A stretch of 10,296 nt of DNA, from IMG/VR virus record IMGVR_UViG_2548876863_000020, positions 1-10,296 of that record; one strand, given 5' to 3'. Under the pieces are notes generated by a model that saw only the letters and a list, made by a program, of their open reading frames with translations, was not told the origin of the DNA and searched no databases. Position 1 is the first letter of the stretch; each line of letters opens with the position of its first letter. Both the position numbers and the translations under genes were made by a program. The DNA is from a virus. Taxonomy: Duplodnaviria > Heunggongvirae > Uroviricota > Caudoviricetes. This document shows, in pieces, positions 1 through 9,300 of the stretch.

Positions 1-201
1 TTACCCATTGGCGCGGCTTAAGAGCTTATTTTTGAATTCACAATGGTCACGATATAACCATCTTGCTCGCCCGTGGATAACTTTGGCTTTAGGCAGGTCT
101 CCGGACTTAATCCGGTCATAGATGAAGGTTTTACCGAAGCCAGTATCAGCCATGATGAATTTCAAATCAACCAGTGAATCAGGCTGTAGTTCGTGTTGCA
201 T
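1..201 (-). CDS. Excisionase-like / AlpA-family small DNA-binding protein (66 aa)
   Basis: Complete ORF, ATG at 201..199 with GGAGA 8 nt upstream, stop at window base 1. Motif IMADTGFGKTFIYDRIKSGDLPKAKVIHGRARW matches the winged-helix AlpA/Xis pattern (TG..K.TIY..I..G.FP..K.G.R..W). Sits at the distal end of the leftward operon where lambdoid phages carry xis next to int. Confidence 0.6.
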   Translation of the reverse strand: MQHELQPDSLVDLKFIMADTGFGKTFIYDRIKSGDLPKAKVIHGRARWLYRDHCEFKNKLLSRANG

Positions 202-323: not shown

Positions 324-668
324 TTAGTCCTTGCGTAGCTCGCTGATTCTTCTGTAAGTCTCTGGTGCTTTGTTCCCGTACGTCTTCATTTCAGACTTCA
401 ACAGAGCAACGAGTGAATCCCATTCGTTGAGGATTCCTTTGAATGCCGGAACGCGCTTTGCAACCTTGTCGAATGAATCTCTGATTTCTGGAATCTGCTC
501 AACAAGTGCAACGCATCGTCGGAAATCTGCTGCGTCATGTGGAGCGCCGAAGTGATGACCATAGATATTCTTTTTCAGTCCACATGCGATTGAGGCAATA
601 GTTGCGCTACTGATGCCGACATCGCCAGTCGATTGCCATTTCAAAACCTTCATAGCCAAATCTGACAT
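324..668 (-). CDS. Hypothetical protein (114 aa)
   Basis: ORF-track frame 324..695; start refined to ATG 668..666 (MSDLAMKVLKW...) because GGAG lies 8 nt upstream and the upstream extension would run through a terminator hairpin. No family recognised. Confidence 0.6.
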   Translation of the reverse strand: MSDLAMKVLKWQSTGDVGISSATIASIACGLKKNIYGHHFGAPHDAADFRRCVALVEQIPEIRDSFDKVAKRVPAFKGILNEWDSLVALLKSEMKTYGNKAPETYRRISELRKD

Positions 669-675
669 TTCTTGT

Positions 676-702
676 CTCCAATAAAAAACCGCCATCAGGC
701 GG
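676..702 (-). terminator. Putative intrinsic terminator (minus strand)
   Basis: Minus-strand RNA CCGCC-UGAU-GGCGG followed by UUUUUUAUUGG. The stop codon TGA of the 55-aa ORF lies in the loop. Confidence 0.5.
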
Positions 703-862
703 CTTGGTGTTCTTTCAGTTCTTCAATTCGAATATTGGTTACGTCTGCATGTGCTATCTGCGCCCATATCATCCAGTGGTTATAACAGTCGTTGATGTTC
801 TCTGCTTCGATAACCCTGTTGAATGGTTCTCCATTCCATTCACCTGTGACTCGGAAGTGCAT
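695..862 (-). CDS. Small hypothetical protein (55 aa), below the ORF-track size cutoff
   Basis: ATG 862..860 with GGAG 7 nt upstream; translates MHFRVTGEWNGEPFNRVIEAENINDCYNHWMIWAQIAHADVTNIRIEELKEHQAA; stop 697..695 inside the terminator hairpin. Confidence 0.4.
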   Translation of the reverse strand: MHFRVTGEWNGEPFNRVIEAENINDCYNHWMIWAQIAHADVTNIRIEELKEHQAA

Positions 863-870
863 TTATCATC

Positions 871-900
871 TCCATAAAACAAAACTCGCCGTAGCGAGTT
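871..900 (-). terminator. Putative intrinsic terminator (minus strand)
   Basis: Minus-strand RNA AACUCGC-UACG-GCGAGUU (7-bp stem) followed by UUGUUUUAUGG, about 43 nt downstream of the 63-aa ORF. Confidence 0.5.
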
Positions 901-942
901 CAGATAAAAGAAATCCATCAATTGGTTAGGGTTTTTGTAATT

Positions 943-1134
943 CTACGAATTATGTTGTTTTTTAGCTTCAGCTTTCCATTCATCAAAGGCAGTGTCTTTG
1001 TTCATGGTGCTGATATTGATCTTACGGTCAATATCATATACACGCCACTCACCGTTAGGCCTCTCTTCGCATCTAACTAAGTATGAATTGCCATTAATAT
1101 CTATGCGTCTGTCTATTTGCATGAACATTTTCAA
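943..1134 (-). CDS. Small hypothetical protein (about 61-63 aa)
   Basis: ORF-track frame. Start ambiguous: TTG 1134 has AGAGGA 8 nt upstream; in-frame ATGs at 1128 and 1122. No family recognised. Confidence 0.5.
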   Translation of the reverse strand: MKMFMQIDRRIDINGNSYLVRCEERPNGEWRVYDIDRKINISTMNKDTAFDEWKAEAKKQHNS

Positions 1135-1245: not shown

Positions 1246-1527
1246 TTAGCAATTGATATTCACCTTTATCGCGTATACCTTTACCGGCTTATCACCGAAG
1301 TGGGGGTGTGTGATTGTTTTCACTTCATATCCTCCATACGGAACATCAATTCTGCGACTGGAGTCGTCGCGCTTCGGATATCCCTTTGTGATAATCAGGC
1401 GGTCATACTCCCGGAACATAATTCGCTTATTCCAATAGTCATTACACAGGCGATACTCTTCCGTTTTCTCTCCTCGAATCATGGCATCGAAGTATTCACC
1501 TTTGACGGCAAGTTGTAGGTTAGCCAC
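1246..1527 (-). CDS. ASCH/DUF3850-like (PUA-fold) protein, tentative (93 aa)
   Basis: GTG start 1527..1525 with AGGAGG 6 nt upstream; overlaps the upstream gene stop by 8 nt. N-terminal pattern L.L.VKGEYFDAMIRGEKTEEYR resembles ASCH/DUF3850 as recalled; not verified by search. Confidence 0.4.
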   Translation of the reverse strand: MANLQLAVKGEYFDAMIRGEKTEEYRLCNDYWNKRIMFREYDRLIITKGYPKRDDSSRRIDVPYGGYEVKTITHPHFGDKPVKVYAIKVNINC

Positions 1528-1822
1528 GGTTAACCTCCTGCGGAGTAGCCTTTACAAGCACTGGTGCAAATCCATCTTCATTAAGGTTATGAATATAGAC
1601 TTCTGTTCTCCTGCGCTCTTCAACGTTTAATATTGTTTCTGGATCATAAACCCATACTTTCATTCGACTATTCCATGAAGAAATCGCTTCAGATCTAGTT
1701 CGTTTTTCTGGTCCTTGGGCACCACATTTGCATGACACATAGCGCATTTTCCCTCTGATACTGAATGAGTATCCGATGTTAAGCACAGTGGAACCACAGA
1801 ATGGGCAGCGATATAGATTCAT
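1520..1822 (-). CDS. Zinc-ribbon protein, Lar-like restriction-alleviation family candidate (100 aa)
   Basis: ATG 1822..1820 with AGGTGG upstream and ATGA overlap with the upstream gene. N-terminal CPFCG...CKCG four-cysteine ribbon is the motif I associate with the Lar family; the C-terminal 50 aa is an unrecognised extension. Confidence 0.45.
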   Translation of the reverse strand: MNLYRCPFCGSTVLNIGYSFSIRGKMRYVSCKCGAQGPEKRTRSEAISSWNSRMKVWVYDPETILNVEERRRTEVYIHNLNEDGFAPVLVKATPQEVNRG

Positions 1823-2520
1823 AAATCATCCACCTTAGGCGCAGCTGAGACAGCAACATTCCAGAACTCAGAAAACATATTGTATGCACCAGATAGATTG
1901 GAAGTGGCATACCCTCCAAGCTCACTTCTAATCTGAACGGCTCTCATCATTTCCGGTGTTAACTCCTTCGGCACCATAACCCAACCATCCGGAGTTACCG
2001 GAGAGTTGCCATCCAGCGCGTTCAACTTGTAAGCCTGGCTTACAGGTTCGGCTTCCAGTTCTGCTATGCGCTTCTCTGATGCTTCAAGTAACGCCTGCTT
2101 ATCGCGTAGCGCTTCTTCCAGTTCAGCAACATGGCACTCACTATCAATAAGGTTGTTCTCTGCGGCTTCCAGCTCAACACGCAGCTTCCCTACCGTTAGC
2201 GCAATATCCTCGTTCTCCTGATCACGGTTTTTGATGTATTGCTGGTTTCTTTCCCGTTCATCCAGCAGTGCCAGCACGGTAGCCGGATTGGCTGCAGCGA
2301 TGAATTCAGCATTGGCCTGCTGTTCCATTTGGAAATCTTCATCGAAACCGCTTTCAGGATGCGCTCCTTCAATTCTGCAAATAGGAATATATCCAGCAAC
2401 TTCACGATGAATTAGCGCATCATCACCATCAAATCGGCTTTCTCCATATTCGAGCGACCACTCACCACACGTTGCTTTTTCTGCCGCTTCACGCAGTGCC
2501 TGATAGTTAATTTTGGTCAT
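1819..2520 (-). CDS. Ead/Ea22-like family protein (233 aa), tentative
   Basis: ATG 2520..2518 with GGGTGA upstream. N-terminal INYQALREAAEKAT and internal LLDERERNQQYIKNRDQENEDIALTVGKLRVELE coiled coil resemble lambda Ea22-like proteins as recalled. Confidence 0.5.
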   Translation of the reverse strand: MTKINYQALREAAEKATCGEWSLEYGESRFDGDDALIHREVAGYIPICRIEGAHPESGFDEDFQMEQQANAEFIAAANPATVLALLDERERNQQYIKNRDQENEDIALTVGKLRVELEAAENNLIDSECHVAELEEALRDKQALLEASEKRIAELEAEPVSQAYKLNALDGNSPVTPDGWVMVPKELTPEMMRAVQIRSELGGYATSNLSGAYNMFSEFWNVAVSAAPKVDDL

Positions 2521-2521
2521 A

Positions 2522-2821
2522 TCACATCACCCTGAAGCCGTTGCATTTACGTAAGAAATCGCAGATATAGCCCTTCATTTTTTCATGCCAATCTCGATCA
2601 TTCCCATTGCACCAACCATCAGGTGGAGTCCAGTTTTCTATCAGAGCAGCCATTTTCTTTGCTTTCGCCGGAGTAGCTGTTGCGGTATCGCAGTAATGAC
2701 GAGTGTCAACCAACGCATCCATACCATCGATATCAAGTACGCAAAACCATGTGTGATTCGGCATTTCAACAGATGGTATTTGTTGCCCACGTCGACGTTT
2801 ATCAATAAGACATACAGTCAC
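2522..2821 (-). CDS. Hypothetical Cys/His-rich protein (99 aa)
   Basis: ORF-track frame 2522..2854; start refined to GTG 2821..2819 because AAAGGAGG lies 6 nt upstream and it forms a GTGA overlap with the stop of the 210-aa gene. Confidence 0.55.
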   Translation of the reverse strand: MTVCLIDKRRRGQQIPSVEMPNHTWFCVLDIDGMDALVDTRHYCDTATATPAKAKKMAALIENWTPPDGWCNGNDRDWHEKMKGYICDFLRKCNGFRVM

Positions 2822-3450
2822 TGGTTGCCTCCTTTGCGAAGCTGTTCCGCCCATTCTTCAAGGGATTTCTCCGCATATTCACCAGACAGGCCATCAATCG
2901 GACGCGGTTCATTAGCCAACTCTTCTTTTGCTGACAAAATCATGCGTGTAACGTCGAAAACTTCACGCAAAGACTTATTGATAAATCCGTGATTGAACGC
3001 AGCAGCAAGACGGCTGGCGGCATAGTTAATCCCCTCGTTGCGTGCTTCCGCACGTACTTCAGCAAGGAAAGCGTCGGTGGCTGGGGTATTTTCCATTAGT
3101 TTTTTTGACGTTGACCAAAGCGCGGAAAGCCACTCTTTATCAAACCATTTATCCTTATGGTGAAACATTTCATCAACTGTCTGGTGGCAGCGGGATACCT
3201 CAAAAAGGCACCGCGCATTCTCCGCCGCCAGCGCTGAAAACTTCTCGTGTGCCAACTTAACAGCCGAATCAGCCTGCTTAATTGACTCAATCGCTCTCTG
3301 TTGGTCTTCGGACAGAGCCGAAATCTTGGCCTCCGCTTCAGCAAATTTACGCACCAGATATTCAGCGTTTGTTTCGTTAACCTTTAAATCTCGTGGAATG
3401 CATTTACCTTTCAGAAAACCATCCATCTCAATTAGTGTCATTTGTTTCAT
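2818..3450 (-). CDS. Hypothetical protein (about 210 aa), predicted helical/coiled-coil
   Basis: ORF-track frame 2818..3468 (GTG); ATG 3450..3448 preferred, with GGAG about 10 nt upstream. No family recognised. Confidence 0.6.
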
Positions 3451-3607
3451 TTTTTTCCACTCCGCCACATCGCATTCAGATATTTGTTGTCATTAACAGA
3501 ACCGAAACTCTTTCTCTTAAGCAATTCCTCTCTCGATGGCATTGGTTTTACGCGTTGGCGAATAATCATTTCTGCCGGAAGAATGCCGGGATTGTATGCA
3601 AGTCCTC

Positions 3608-3889
3608 TCATGATTTACTCTCCATGAACTGGTCAACAGCCATGCTAAGTGATACACCTAACGTCTCGATATGCTGCTGAATATCCTGTAGCGTCTGCGC
3701 CTGAGATAACAGGATTTCACGGTTGCATAACTCTTTAACCAGATGCTCAAACTTGCTGTAATAACCGATACGACTGAGCGTTTCTTTCCCTGCATTCTCG
3801 CCTTCTTTGATAATTCCTCTTTCGCTAAGAATCAGGTCGTGTTTGGTTCCGGTAATAACGTATTTTCCGAGGTCGATGTTTAGCTTCAT
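3608..3889 (-). CDS. Hypothetical protein (93 aa)
   Basis: ORF-track frame, ATG 3889..3887, same strand and tight spacing with neighbours; weak RBS. No family recognised. Confidence 0.55.
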
Positions 3890-4231: not shown

Positions 4232-4720
4232 TTATTTGATAAGAAGTGAAGGTTTCCCAACTTTGAGTTGAGCGCCGGGGATATTTATTCCTGCTTTTAG
4301 TTGGTGTTTGATTGCCAGTTTGTCGGCTTTAATTGTCGTTTCAAACTCAACGTATTCAGGAGGAAGGGCGCTTGAGTCGATGATTTCTACAGTTTCTGAC
4401 GGTTTGCGGATTGTTACTTGGTGAATACCTGCTCGAATCTTTTTCTTGCCAACCATTTCAAGCGATGACGCTATATACGCCATAATGCTGTCAATCTTAT
4501 TTTGAATTACTGCGGCTCGTTCATTCAGTGACTTTGCCTCGTCCTTGAGGCGTTCAGCATAACCAGATTCATTTTTAATAATGGCGAGAAGTTGCTCTAT
4601 TTTATCGGTAAATTCTCCTTCCATTCCTTCTATTGTGTCAGCAATCATCTCTGGCTCTAAATCTGAATCCATCAATTTTGCGTATTCATTGGCTATTTCA
4701 TATAGTTTGCTCACTGGCAA
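4232..4720 (-). CDS. Coiled-coil recombination-associated protein, possibly Sipho_Gp157-like (162 aa)
   Basis: ATG 4720..4718 with GGAGG 6 nt upstream; overlaps the recT 3' end by 23 nt. Size, predicted coiled coil and position next to recT fit Gp157-family proteins; assignment is from memory only. Confidence 0.4.
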   Translation of the reverse strand: MPVSKLYEIANEYAKLMDSDLEPEMIADTIEGMEGEFTDKIEQLLAIIKNESGYAERLKDEAKSLNERAAVIQNKIDSIMAYIASSLEMVGKKKIRAGIHQVTIRKPSETVEIIDSSALPPEYVEFETTIKADKLAIKHQLKAGINIPGAQLKVGKPSLLIK

Positions 4721-5600
4721 CCTCCAGTTTCGCTTTGCATTCTATGTAAATGGCTTGTACGTTCTGCTGCAATTTCATTCCAGATGTCAGGCGATATGCT
4801 TCTGCAAAATATCGCTTCAAATCATCCATGTTTTCTGCCTGAGCCATTTCATCACAAAGAAGTTGTGCTTTTTCCATTATTTCCTGCTGGCGTTTCCGTT
4901 CATCTTCGCGGATATCTTCCTCTGATTTGTGCGGCATAACTGGTTCCTGATGCATACCTTCATCTTCGTTAAGCAGGTGAATGGCATTATCCAGTCGCTG
5001 GGCTTTAGGCCAGTATTTGCTGGCGCGTTTAACTATGGTTTTACGCGCCATCTCTTCCCAGAATGTCTTCCACGGTCCATTCTTTGCCTTGCTCGTTGCT
5101 TCCACAGCTTTAATTTCTGCCAGACTCATTTCTTCAGTCAGGTAGTCACCATCTGCTGTTTTAACCGTGCAATAACCTCCAACAATAGAGCCTCGCTCAC
5201 CAAATGCGTTGTATTTGTGGGTTGGTGCTGAATCAAGGCCATTTGATTCATAGGTGTCGTTTGAGTACACCAGTTTGCATTGCCCCCACTTAATTGATCC
5301 TGTCGATTGCGCAAGATGAAGTAATCCCATGTAACTGATATCAAGGCACACCATGCCGTCGCGAGGAACCAGATAAGCAAGTTTGCTGGCCGGGTTTAAG
5401 GTGATGCCGATCGCCGCAACATTGATGATGGCGTTCTGTGCGCTGGTTGGATTTGCCAGTGCTGTTTTAGCCAGGTAATCGTTTTTCTGGAAATACTGAA
5501 TTGCAAACTGGCTTTCCTTAGCCCATGTCACCGTCTGTTCAGTCAATGCTCCGCAGAATAACTGCTCTTGCTGTTTAACGAATTCAACGATATTGCTCAT
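4698..5600 (-). CDS. recT: RecT-family single-strand annealing recombinase (300 aa)
   Basis: ATG 5600..5598 with GGAGA 6 nt upstream. Conserved segment NGPWKTFWEEMARKTIVKRASKYWP matches the RecT signature (compare Rac RecT NGPWVTHWEEMAKKTAIRRLFKYLP, recalled). Confidence 0.85.
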   Translation of the reverse strand: MSNIVEFVKQQEQLFCGALTEQTVTWAKESQFAIQYFQKNDYLAKTALANPTSAQNAIINVAAIGITLNPASKLAYLVPRDGMVCLDISYMGLLHLAQSTGSIKWGQCKLVYSNDTYESNGLDSAPTHKYNAFGERGSIVGGYCTVKTADGDYLTEEMSLAEIKAVEATSKAKNGPWKTFWEEMARKTIVKRASKYWPKAQRLDNAIHLLNEDEGMHQEPVMPHKSEEDIREDERKRQQEIMEKAQLLCDEMAQAENMDDLKRYFAEAYRLTSGMKLQQNVQAIYIECKAKLEVASEQTI

Positions 5601-6384: not shown

Positions 6385-7008
6385 CTATGCGGCTTCGGAA
6401 GGAAGTCCAATCATCTTATTCAAATCTTCTACCCGTAAAGCAGGAAGTGCTGTACTTGCTTTATCTGCTTCTTTTGGTAGCAATTCTTTGCTTTCAGGCC
6501 AAACTTCAATAAGTCGCTTAACTGTTGTGACTGAGTTCAAAGCAGCCCATACATTTGATTCGATATCCTTTTTCAAGGCTTCAAGGTTTTGTTGCAATGC
6601 GCAGATTTCATCAAACCTTTTTGTTATTTCGTGTTCTGCGTCAAACATGCATTTATCTTTAGTCGGAGTAGGGAGCAATATATCTTCTCCGTTGCCGTCT
6701 TTCCCATATGAATGCCATCCAACCCTTCTGCCAGATACAGTCAGATAAATCGAAGTAGAACGAACATCGCATGAGTAAAATGAACATCCCAGCTTTTCAA
6801 GTTCTTCACTTATAGCTACTAACTTGGATGATAACTGATCCACTTCCTCAGTTTTATTTTTACCGCCAAACGCAATAACTCTGGCGTCAAGTGCAAGCTG
6901 GTTCTTTAACTTTGTTACTTCTTCAAGTTCAGTGAAAACCCCAGACTTAATTAAAGCGTTACGAGCGATTTTCTCTTTCATTCTCGTAGTTAAGCGGATT
7001 GATGACAT
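6385..7008 (-). CDS. Hypothetical protein (207 aa)
   Basis: ORF-track frame 6385..7023 (TTG); ATG 7008..7006 preferred, with GAGAGGT upstream. Lies between ral-like and cIII-like. No family recognised. Confidence 0.65.
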   Translation of the reverse strand: MSSIRLTTRMKEKIARNALIKSGVFTELEEVTKLKNQLALDARVIAFGGKNKTEEVDQLSSKLVAISEELEKLGCSFYSCDVRSTSIYLTVSGRRVGWHSYGKDGNGEDILLPTPTKDKCMFDAEHEITKRFDEICALQQNLEALKKDIESNVWAALNSVTTVKRLIEVWPESKELLPKEADKASTALPALRVEDLNKMIGLPSEAA

Positions 7009-7021
7009 ATTAATACCTCTC

Positions 7022-7054
7022 AAATAAGAAAATAAAGGCCACCATCAGGCAGCC
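7022..7054 (-). terminator. Putative intrinsic terminator (minus strand) after ral-like gene
   Basis: Minus-strand RNA GGCUGCC-UGAU-GGUGGCC (7 bp including two G-U pairs) followed by UUUAUUUUCUUAUUU; the ral-like stop TGA is in the loop. Confidence 0.45.
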
Positions 7055-7245
7055 TTGTTGTTCTGTTTACCAAGTTCTCTGGCAATCATTGCCGTAGTTC
7101 GTATTGCCCATTTATCGACATATTTCCCATCCTCCATTACAGGAAGCATTTCTTCAGGCTTAACCATGCATTCCGATTGCAGCTTGCATCCATTGCATCG
7201 CTTGAATTGTCCACACCATTGATTTTTATCAATAGTCGTAGTCAT
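7045..7245 (-). CDS. ral: Ral-like restriction-alleviation protein (66 aa), cysteine-rich
   Basis: ATG 7245..7243. Sequence MTTTIDKNQWCGQFKRCNGCKLQSEC... matches my recollection of lambda Ral closely, and it lies downstream of N in the pL operon as ral does in lambda. Not verified by search. Confidence 0.5.
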   Translation of the reverse strand: MTTTIDKNQWCGQFKRCNGCKLQSECMVKPEEMLPVMEDGKYVDKWAIRTTAMIARELGKQNNKAA

Positions 7246-7323
7246 ACGGATAGTCCTGGTATTGTTCCATCACATCCTGCGGATGCTCTTCGAACTCTTC
7301 AAATTCTTCTTCCATATCTCACC

Positions 7324-7623
7324 TCAAATAAGTGGTTTGCTGCCTAATTTCATTTTCTGGCAACCAACACAAGTCACACCCATTTCACTGCGTGGCTTGC
7401 GGTAGTAAATACGGTTCTGTTTACGCTCGACTTCTTCTTTCTTCTTGCAGCAAAGGCTTCCTAGCGATGCTGCTTTGTCTGCTCTGACGCAACCAGAGAG
7501 CTTTAGCGCAATTTTTCGCGCCAGTCGCTGCTCTTGCATCGCCTGTTCACGTTGAGCCTGTCTGCGTGCTCTGCGGCGATTTCTGGCGTTATCGTCAGCC
7601 AGATATGTAATGACTACTGTCAT
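7324..7623 (-). CDS. N: Antitermination protein N (99 aa)
   Basis: ATG 7623..7621 with GGAGG 5 nt upstream (track ORF extends further with a non-ATG start). Arginine-rich motif NARNRRRARRQAQREQ near the N-terminus; C-terminus ERKQNRIYYRKPRSEMGVTCVGCQKMKLGSKPLI parallels lambda N (ERKNQRTWYSKPGERGITCSGRQKIKGKSIPLI, recalled). Confidence 0.85.
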   Translation of the reverse strand: MTVVITYLADDNARNRRRARRQAQREQAMQEQRLARKIALKLSGCVRADKAASLGSLCCKKKEEVERKQNRIYYRKPRSEMGVTCVGCQKMKLGSKPLI

Positions 7624-7678
7624 GTTGACCTCCGATGAAACAACTTTGGAATTGATAGTGATTGCAAAGTGGTTTCTG

Positions 7679-7707
7679 GCCCCTCGAACTGAGGGGCAGA
7701 AAGAGCA
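7679..7707 (-). promoter_or_regulatory. GC-rich hairpin with boxA-like flank in the N leader (function uncertain)
   Basis: Minus-strand RNA UGCUCUUUCU then GCCCCUC-AGUUC-GAGGGGC (7-bp perfect stem), about 55 nt upstream of the N start; no U tract after it, so not a classical terminator. Confidence 0.35.
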
Positions 7708-7936
7708 TCTCGCCACCTAATAGGTCGATGCTCGGATCGAGAGATTTAATTAACCTCGGTTTTGAAGTTATGCATTCACATAAATCCTCCTACCTCTTGT
7801 GCAGCTTTCTTGAATATGGTGGCGGCTGCATAACGCCTATGGAATTGACTTTGGCGGTGACGCGCCGGGTGCTTATCTTCCGGTTGCCGTCGTGCAGCTG
7901 CACTTCACGTCACCCCAAAGCCAACTACTCTTTGGT

Positions 7937-7978
7937 TCCCGCATTTCGGCGGGACAATCCCATCAATGTTAAAGAGCA
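7937..7978 (-). promoter_or_regulatory. nutL (boxA + boxB)
   Basis: Minus-strand RNA UGCUCUUUAAC (boxA-like; consensus CGCUCUUUA) followed after 14 nt by hairpin UCCCGC-CGAAAU-GCGGGA. The same boxA plus identical boxB occurs in the same transcript orientation downstream of cro. Confidence 0.7.
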
Positions 7979-8023
7979 TGCCAATCTGTTCCGTTTGGCT
8001 ACCAGCGTCCTGCTGATGGCTAA

Positions 8024-8052
8024 AGAATACTGTAGGTATTTTATTGTGTAAA
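8024..8052 (-). promoter_or_regulatory. pL candidate (-35 TTTACA, 17-nt spacer, -10 TATTCT on minus strand)
   Basis: Read on the minus strand: TTTACA (plus 8047-8052), spacer of 17, TATTCT (plus 8024-8029). Same -10 hexamer as the pR candidate; overlaps OL1, about 40 nt upstream of nutL. Confidence 0.45.
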
Positions 8053-8110
8053 TACCCAAGGTATTTATTTTTGGTGAAATAATGATAAGCAAATGAATAC
8101 AAAGGATATT
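8026..8110. promoter_or_regulatory. OL operator cluster (three 15-bp palindromic sites)
   Basis: AATAC-TGTAG-GTATT (8026-8040), AATAC-CCAAG-GTATT (8051-8065), AATAC-AAAGG-ATATT (8096-8110). Same AATAC-N5-GTATT motif as in the cI-cro intergenic region. Confidence 0.6.
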
Positions 8111-8197
8111 TATTTTTTTCGGTGTCTGCTTGTTCAGTGCTTTTTATGCGGGATATGTGAAGTGGATCCCGATAGCTATTGCTGCCGGGATTATGAG

Positions 8198-8566
8198 TTA
8201 GTCAGCGAAGGTTAAGACGAGAATTACCTTAATGATGTCTGCTACAACAGACACGGCCATAGATAAACCAAAGACGATCCAAGCCATAGAGATGTCTTCA
8301 CTACCATCGTATAGAGTTCCGTAATCACTGGTGTAAGGCGTAAATGTCGCGCCTTGATACAACAGGTATAAGCTTGAACCATAGAGGATAAATGCAGATA
8401 TCCCTTGTATTGCTATGATCACTAGAATCATGAAACGAGCTGATCTATGCGCCCAAGCCTGGCTTATTTTTTCTGATAGAGATTTCGCAATAAAAGCATG
8501 CGCTAAGCCGTAAATTGTCGAGATTGCCAACATCCCAAAAAAGCTTGCTATAGCGGTTCCAACCAT
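8198..8566 (-). CDS. Small integral membrane protein (about 122 aa, three predicted TM helices) co-transcribed downstream of cI
   Basis: ORF-track frame 8198..8587 (TTG overlapping the cI stop); ATG 8566..8564 with AAGGGG upstream is the more likely start. Three hydrophobic stretches of roughly 25 residues each. No terminator between it and cI. Confidence 0.65.
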   Translation of the reverse strand: MVGTAIASFFGMLAISTIYGLAHAFIAKSLSEKISQAWAHRSARFMILVIIAIQGISAFILYGSSLYLLYQGATFTPYTSDYGTLYDGSEDISMAWIVFGLSMAVSVVADIIKVILVLTFAD

Positions 8567-8583
8567 AAGCGCCCCTTGCGTGA

Positions 8584-9300
8584 TCAAACCAGCCTTAGTT
8601 TTGTCTCAATTGCAACGCCTATAATCTTGCAGTTTCCATTGATTGGCACGAGAGGCCATGCAGGGTTAAGTCCCTTGAGGTATTTATTTCCGCCGTCGAT
8701 TATCAGCTTCTTGAATGTTGCTTCGTTAGAGTCAGAAAGTTTTGCTATGACCAAGCTGCCGTTGATCGCCTCCCTTCCGGTATCGAAAAGAACGAATGTT
8801 CCCTCTGGAATGCTTAACCCAACCGGTGCCGTCATTGAATCACCTTCCACTTTAAGCCAGAACGCATTACCTTGAATATGCGCGTCAGACTCAAGCCAAA
8901 CATCTATGTCTTTAATGGTGTATGGTTCGCATGCTTCACACCACGAGCCAGCCTGGATACTGCTTAACACCGGATACCTCTTTCCTGCTCTGTATTCCCC
9001 TGCATACCTTACGTTGGCATCGCTCTTAAGGCTTTCTGCCTGTTCTGCAACCTTGGCAGCAATTGACTGGCTAAAATCAGCAATTGAGACTTGCAACAGT
9101 CGTGCAAAACCAGATGCAACCTCAACGTTTAGCGCGTTTCTGCCATTAAGATAATGCCCTACCGCTCCTTGGGTGATACCCAGTTCATCAGCGATTGAGT
9201 ATTGGGTTATTCCCAATTCTTTCTTTTTTGACTCATACAAAGCCTTAAGCCGCTTAGCGTCTTCGAGCTGTTCTGTCGTCAGTGATTTTTTATTTTCCAT
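8584..9300 (-). CDS. cI: CI-type prophage repressor (238 aa), HTH plus S24 autopeptidase domain
   Basis: Strong resemblance to lambda CI as recalled (LTTEQLEDAKRLKALYESKKKELG...). Ala-Gly cleavage site in IQAGSW, catalytic Ser in EGDSMTAP, Lys in TFKKLI. Divergent from cro with operators between them. Confidence 0.95.
   Translation of the reverse strand: MENKKSLTTEQLEDAKRLKALYESKKKELGITQYSIADELGITQGAVGHYLNGRNALNVEVASGFARLLQVSIADFSQSIAAKVAEQAESLKSDANVRYAGEYRAGKRYPVLSSIQAGSWCEACEPYTIKDIDVWLESDAHIQGNAFWLKVEGDSMTAPVGLSIPEGTFVLFDTGREAINGSLVIAKLSDSNEATFKKLIIDGGNKYLKGLNPAWPLVPINGNCKIIGVAIETKLRLV

Follow-up and report, generated by a model that had tools for sequence, protein, structure and literature searches.

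The window analysed here, a stretch of 10,296 nucleotides taken from IMG/VR virus record IMGVR_UViG_2548876863_000020, is the immunity and early-left (pL) region of a P22/HK620-like lambdoid prophage, as judged by comparison of its open reading frames (ORFs), profile matches and annotations. The closest phage records, HK140, vB_EcoP-611R6 and relatives of HK620, match it as a mosaic, with 35-63% coverage at 94-98% identity. Read along the minus strand, the gene order is cI, N, Ral, Nmad5, RecT, a run of further genes, Ead/Ea22, Lar-like, ASCH-like, small ORFs and xis. A first-pass annotation had singled out the Lar-like, ASCH-like and Ral genes, and its coordinates for all three proved correct. 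The features that bear on their interpretation are these:

8584-9300, minus strand: cI-like repressor gene
7324-7716, minus strand: ORF for an N-like antiterminator
7045-7245, minus strand: ral, a lambda-type restriction-alleviation gene of 66 aa, placed by the Pfam Ral profile and by identity to lambda Ral
6385-7023, minus strand: Nmad5 gene (Pfam, 234 bits)
4698-5600, minus strand: RecT gene
Between RecT and DUF7739, minus strand: gene for a Gp157-like protein, then several small ORFs
2522-2854, minus strand: DUF7739 gene
1819-2520, minus strand: Ead/Ea22-like gene, directly upstream of the Lar-like gene (Pfam Ead_Ea22, 122 bits)
1520-1822, minus strand: Lar-like gene, ATG start, 100 aa (PF14354, TIGR03655)
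1661-1816, minus strand: core of the Lar zinc ribbon, aa 3-54, with C6xxC9 ... C31xC33 and then EAISSWNSR (both curated HMMs)
1544-1660, minus strand: orphan C-terminal domain of the Lar-like protein, aa 55-93, predicted beta-alpha-beta
1520-1543, minus strand: shared module junction ccgcaggaggttaaccGTGGCTAA, which encodes the Lar tail PQEVNRG* and holds the Shine-Dalgarno sequence and GTG start of the ASCH-like gene
1246-1527, minus strand: ASCH-like gene, GTG start, 93 aa, a stand-alone minimal ASCH fold by predicted structure and motif
1450-1473, minus strand: ASCH motif G19-E-K21-T-E-E24-Y-R26 (GxKxxExR), matching the definition in PMC6803910
882-901, minus strand: first terminator-like hairpin after the Lar-like and ASCH-like genes (pattern scan only)
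324-1134, minus strand: three small conserved ORFs of 63, 55 and 123 aa (phrog_16329, phrog_676 and phrog_1229)
1-201, minus strand: TorI/Xis-like gene

The stop codon of the Ead/Ea22-like gene, which usually precedes the Lar-like gene in related loci, overlaps the Lar-like start as ATGA (ATG at 1822). A simple pattern scan found no terminator-like hairpin on the minus strand between ~6193 and 901, and the Lar-like and ASCH-like genes would therefore be read within a long N-antiterminated transcript. Over the whole window, sigma-70 promoter-like sites were fewer than in shuffled sequence (6 versus 18.8 +/- 3.6), and terminator-like hairpins were more numerous (21 versus 9.7 +/- 2.9). The three small ORFs 3' of the ASCH-like gene are independently present or absent among related loci. 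Directly 3' of Ral, the Nmad5 gene ("nucleotide modification associated domain 5") accompanies the Lar-like gene in only two of 40 loci (L145 and L148). A 129-aa hydrophobic ORF (8198-8587, minus strand) overlaps the cI-like repressor gene and lies immediately downstream of it, in a slot that is often occupied by prophage exclusion genes. PADLOC, run on ten proteins of the cluster, matched no defence-system model.

Of 5426 complete E. coli genomes, 3171 match the Lar-ASCH region in whole or in part, and the PGAP annotation of many E. coli genomes already lists the two products as "Lar family restriction alleviation protein" and "ASCH domain-containing protein". In the best E. coli match (NZ_AP042519.1, positions 7100-8373; 99.9% identity), annotation marks the Lar-like and Ead/Ea22 genes as partial pseudogenes, and IS66 and IS3 elements lie on the flanks of the region; this prophage copy is therefore decaying.

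The first-pass annotation had assigned the product of 1520-1822 to the Lar family from its cysteine motifs, C6-P-F-C9-G and C31-K-C33-G, and curated models bear this out. Residues 2-54 scored 35.7 bits against Pfam Lar_restr_allev (PF14354; cutoff 28.6) and 58.7 bits against TIGR03655 anti_R_Lar (cutoff 39.6). In an alignment of Rac Lar with the orthologues of the window protein, C6, P7, F8, C9, E45, A46, W50, N51 and R53 are invariant, and C31 and C33 are conserved within the Lar-like subfamily; the protein thus has the four-cysteine Lar ribbon and the EA(I/L)xxWNxR motif. By its sequence it is a clear Lar-family member, to which a function can be transferred only by homology. PDB sequence searches with the Lar-like protein gave no meaningful match.

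A role in restriction alleviation is suggested by 34% identity over 53 aa to a single characterised protein, Lar/RalR of the Rac prophage (E. coli K-12 b1348, 64 aa). The activity that names the family, EcoKI-type restriction alleviation with enhanced modification, is documented for Rac Lar alone (King and Murray 1995, as cited in PMC4041452); the same protein was subsequently described as a DNase toxin as well (PMC4041452). Our search of the literature on "Lar-like" phage proteins returned genome-annotation papers, and no experiments on these proteins were found. Rac Lar and the window protein share the CPFCG core and the EA(I/L)xxWNxR motif, and both genes occupy the distal part of an early-left operon, with recombination genes on one side and xis/int on the other. 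The two differ in length (64 versus 100 aa, the longer protein carrying a conserved orphan domain of ~40 aa), in the second zinc knuckle (CxxC in Rac Lar, CxC in the window protein) and in the gene that follows, which is the unrelated rcbA in Rac and the ASCH-like gene in the window.

What lies behind the ribbon had been described as an unrecognised C-terminal extension of 50 aa. The extension, of 47 aa, does fall outside the Pfam and NCBIfam models, but residues 55-100 are covered by the PHROG 599 profile and the last seven codons belong to the junction with the next gene. The pattern W..YDPET...ERRRT..YI..L..DGF.P is kept in all orthologues of 66-100% identity, and structure prediction, at moderate confidence, made this stretch a small beta-alpha-beta unit. 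The 100-aa form is rare: 12 protein clusters contain it, all of them from Escherichia and Enterobacter. We conclude that the C-terminal ~40 aa are a real, conserved orphan domain restricted to a small enterobacterial subfamily, and that the final seven residues, PQEVNRG, are module junction and stand outside that domain. The last 24 Lar-like residues also turned up in a 74-aa chimeric ORF (P0012), behind the N-terminus of lambda N (Pfam N36); this chimera implies a deletion of several kb spanning the early-left operon in some defective prophage.

Assignment of the 93-aa product of 1246-1527 required structure as well as sequence. Against Pfam ASCH (PF04266) it scored 15.7 bits, below the gathering cutoff of 21.2, and 25 of 76 relatives matched the same model, all of them sub-threshold (best E 0.002). 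DUF3850 (PF12961) did not match the window protein at E<=0.1 and matched one of the 76 relatives, at E 0.019. No NCBIfam model matched, and PDB searches with the protein and with an ASCH profile gave nothing meaningful; in PGAP the protein is called "ASCH domain-containing". An AlphaFold model based on the 76 homologues was confident (pLDDT 85.6). Its top Foldseek matches were the ASCH proteins 3IUW, PH0355, PF0470, YqfB and ZmASCH, with YTH and EVE readers next in rank. The best match, 3IUW of E. faecalis, is presumably a DUF3850 representative. The other ASCH proteins that the window protein resembles include P. horikoshii PH0355, E. coli YqfB and human EOLA1; identity to solved ASCH structures is only 13-20%, and at 93 aa the protein is shorter than most of them.

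The signature GxKxxExR, located by definition in the alpha1-beta2 region of ASCH proteins (PMC6803910), lies in the window protein at the residue numbers of EOLA1. All 76 homologues keep E24 and R26, and conservation of G19 and K21 is at least 90%. In EOLA1 and YqfB, both ac4C deacylases, K21, E/T24 and R26 make up the catalytic pocket, and R26A is inactive (bioRxiv 10.64898/2026.08.01.741249). A threonine nucleophile of the YqfB type was considered and rejected, as position 24 is a glutamate, which gives the pocket triad of the TRIP4/EOLA1 type. We therefore accept an ASCH/PUA-like fold for this protein as a prediction; the assignment rests on fold and motif because the sequence score falls short of the Pfam cutoff. 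The ASCH part of the earlier ASCH/DUF3850-like description stands on those terms; a DUF3850 relationship is at most tentative. Profile searches, which the first-pass annotation had proposed as a check, thus placed Lar and Ral in their families and left ASCH below threshold. Both the Lar-like and the ASCH-like ORF are, on their conservation, real genes and not chance ORFs, because the ASCH-like protein matches phrog_625 at E 3.8e-50 and has 627 protein clusters and the Lar-like protein has 12.

Ral is the simplest of the three genes to place. Its product matched Pfam Ral (PF11058) with 160.7 bits over residues 1-66 of 66 and is 98.5% identical to lambda Ral, so that by profile it is a clear member of that family. 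The gene has the length of lambda ral and the same place just downstream of N, as had been noted, and is followed in the window by the Nmad5 gene. That two restriction-alleviation-like genes share one operon is true, but it is neither unusual nor new. The long-published phage Sf6 carries both: gene 35 is Ral, 97% identical to that of the window, and gp20, annotated as "Lar-like restriction alleviation protein", is the same 100-aa protein behind Ead/Ea22, with 96.7% DNA identity over the shared region. Among loci with enough upstream sequence, Ral was found alongside the Lar-like gene in three of 33; the two genes assort independently.

We then asked what joins the Lar-like and ASCH-like genes. 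Their overlap is 8 nt, as first described, and reads GTGGCTAA (1520-1527), with the GTG start of the ASCH-like gene at 1525-1527. Relatives have ATG or GTG at this very position, which confirms the start. A strong Shine-Dalgarno sequence, AGGAGG, lies inside the Lar-like gene at 1534-1539, six bases upstream of the overlap. Such an arrangement speaks for the idea that the zinc ribbon and the ASCH/PUA-fold protein are translationally coupled as one modification-sensing anti-defence unit. However, the ASCH-like gene uses the same junction and the same overlap with upstream genes that are unrelated to Lar. Identical ccgcaggaggttaaccGTGGCTAA DNA with the 8-nt overlap was found behind Ead/Ea22-DUF551 fusions, the Lar-like gene and two orphan ORFs, and behind DUF4752 genes a variant, aaggaggaaggtcGTGGCTAA, makes the same 8-nt overlap. 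The overlap is thus a generic junction, common to at least four unrelated kinds of upstream gene. The ASCH-like gene carries its own 5' junction, comprising ribosome-binding site and start codon, and this junction supplies the final 6-7 codons of any gene that precedes it. Translational coupling and the 8-nt overlap therefore stem from the junction rather than from a partnership between Lar and ASCH. It follows, too, why Ead/Ea22-DUF551 fusions, the Lar-like protein and two orphan proteins, otherwise unrelated, end in a common QEVN(R/H)G tail: the tail is the junction that contains the ribosome-binding site of the ASCH-like gene. An 8-nt overlap also joins ralR (lar) of the K-12 Rac prophage to its downstream gene rcbA (positions 2734-2741 of that locus); the downstream genes of the two loci are unrelated.

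Sf6 provides a direct view of the junction after loss of the downstream gene. In the Sf6 record the junction is kept together with ~40 nt of the 5' end of the ASCH-like gene (~2490-2530, corresponding to 1490-1527 of the window), after which the sequence diverges; the Lar-like gp20 is intact. Nine IMG/VR loci are in the same state, with the junction and ~40 nt of ASCH sequence following the Lar stop codon. This ~40-nt stretch is what an internal deletion has left of the ASCH-like gene. ASCH was lost in Sf6 while Lar remained intact, and the ASCH-like gene is therefore dispensable for retention of the Lar-like gene.

Short conserved stretches at gene borders are a familiar feature of these phages. 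The Sf6 record annotates "boundary sequences" (bsq2 and bsq3) in its early region. Clark et al. in 2001 and Casjens et al. in 2004 are said to have regarded such sequences as sites of module exchange in these phages. The junction described here resembles them as a short conserved stretch at a gene junction, common to otherwise unrelated neighbours, that marks module exchange. Unlike bsq2 and bsq3, it is absent from the set annotated in Sf6, and it falls within the last codons of the gene that precedes it.

We compared related loci to assess whether the two genes travel together. Close relatives in IMG/VR numbered 494 for the ASCH-like gene and 40 for the Lar-like form. Seeding with Lar recovered the ASCH-like gene in 17 of the 40 loci, 13 of them adjacent with the 8-nt overlap and four with a DUF4752 gene between; the 13 adjacent cases count in favour of a coupled pair, but in all 17 the Lar copies are at least 93% identical. 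Seeding with ASCH recovered the Lar-like gene in four of 80 loci, these being the 80 most similar of the 494 and not a random sample, and at most ~3% of the 494 can hold this Lar-like gene. The pair was found in none of nine diverged Lar orthologues (66-69% identity). Likewise, a Lar zinc-ribbon HMM found no Lar ribbon within 2.5 kb of the ASCH gene in any of 12 species-representative genomes (Brenneria, Citrobacter, Kluyvera, Enterobacter and others) whose ASCH homologues are 67-86% identical. Adjacency is seen only among near-identical DNA segments, and a conserved two-gene functional unit, which should show itself among diverged orthologues, is not supported by these sequence comparisons.

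Neighbours on either side were equally varied. At least eight different things were found downstream of the Lar-like gene. Upstream of the ASCH-like gene lay Ead/Ea22-DUF551 fusions (31 loci), DUF4752 genes (29), DksA/TraR zinc-finger genes (11), the Lar-like gene (2) and several orphan ORFs. The idea that the other upstream neighbours are cryptic Lar relatives was rejected: the Lar zinc-ribbon HMM detected the four known loci only, and Pfam puts the other neighbours in different families.

More distant Lar-family genes were surveyed in 37 loci with ribbon identities of 33-70%. Their 107 neighbouring ORFs fell into 34 Pfam families, none of which occurred more than twice. A sub-threshold ASCH-like ORF lay within 1 kb of the Lar gene in two of the 37, a count that stands without a background rate. 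In one (L223) an ORF of 178 aa (1948-2481) is directly upstream of the Lar-family gene; in the other (L193) an ORF of 159 aa (3362-3838) is the second gene downstream. The contigs are unrelated, and gene order and ASCH subtype differ between them. We regard this proximity as a weak residual hint.

Taken together, these findings describe ordinary mosaicism of lambdoid phages, which public genome annotations already record. We consider it likely that Ral, the Lar-like gene and the ASCH-like gene are separate, shuffled accessory genes of a P22/HK620-like lambdoid prophage, each with a presumed role of its own. The three would have been assembled by recombination at short conserved gene-boundary sequences, and not as a functional unit. 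As in lambda, Ral would promote methylation of unmodified DNA by type IA enzymes via HsdM. Homology to Rac Lar suggests that the Lar-like protein is, most likely, a second small zinc-ribbon protein that modulates type I restriction-modification enzymes, and its orphan C-terminal domain may give it a target range different from that of Ral. For the ASCH-like protein, which keeps the K21/E24/R26 pocket of the N4-acylcytidine deacylases, the most likely role is binding, and probably hydrolysis, of a modified cytosine-type nucleoside or flipped-out base, with no dependence on the Lar-like protein.

The last of these roles has the most serious competitor. Instead of being a deacylase-type hydrolase, the ASCH-like protein could be a non-catalytic reader of modified bases, or it could bind RNA or act as a ribonuclease in the manner of ZmASCH. 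The PUA, YTH and EVE relatives that follow the ASCH matches in fold searches are readers, ZmASCH is a ribonuclease according to work cited in PMC6803910, some sources name relatives "RNA-binding protein", and murine EOLA1 is reported to be inactive on free ac4C (bioRxiv 10.64898/2026.08.01.741249). However, the residues needed for catalysis by YqfB and EOLA1 are invariant or nearly so at K21, E24 and R26, and a protein of this size has neither an extra nucleic-acid-binding surface nor a partner domain. On balance we hold the reader or ribonuclease role to be unlikely, and favour a deacylase-type hydrolase.

For the Lar-like protein there was a possibility that it is a DNase toxin of the RalR type, part of a type I toxin-antitoxin pair, rather than an anti-restriction factor. 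Rac Lar/RalR, the only characterised member of the family, is toxic and cleaves DNA non-specifically, and the small RNA RalA, whose gene lies opposite the one downstream of ralR, controls it (PMC4041452); the zinc-ribbon core is common to RalR and the Lar-like protein. Yet within the window we found no ralA-like sequence, no complementarity of at least 13 nt to the Lar-like mRNA and no match to any Rfam family. Moreover, the gene belongs to a lytic operon that is under repressor control and depends on N, it has no promoter-like site of its own close by, and its product has only 34% identity to RalR and an extra domain. A toxin role is improbable, and an anti-restriction role for the Lar-like protein remains our preferred reading.

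Another reading combines several of these elements: the orphan domain of the Lar-like protein would target defence beyond the reach of Ral, the ASCH-like protein would act as a deacylase or modified-cytosine reader in counter-defence or salvage, and the two would be loosely linked. We give this combination little credence. If the orphan domain did act on another restriction or defence system, this would explain why phages such as Sf6 and that of the window carry both Ral and a Lar-like gene; if the combination as a whole were true, the ASCH-like genes at two of 37 distant Lar loci would reflect a loose functional link.

The combined anti-defence unit of Lar ribbon and PUA-fold protein proposed in the first-pass annotation is, finally, very improbable and is set aside: reports of ASCH domains beside archaeal type I restriction-modification systems (PMC7641849) and the two distant Lar loci lend it some appeal, but gene order differs between those two, and the co-occurrence counts, the Sf6 deletion and the generic junction all speak against it.

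As a discovery, the locus carries little weight, since annotations of many E. coli genomes and of classic phages already give the three genes these names. What is mildly new is confined to the orphan C-terminal domain of the Lar subfamily and to a junction that gives unrelated proteins a common tail. The 93-aa phage ASCH protein is very common. For lambdoid early operons generally, the locus carries two cautions: an overlap between two genes can reflect a recombination junction rather than coupling in function, and a C-terminal tail common to unrelated proteins can be the ribosome-binding site of the next gene.
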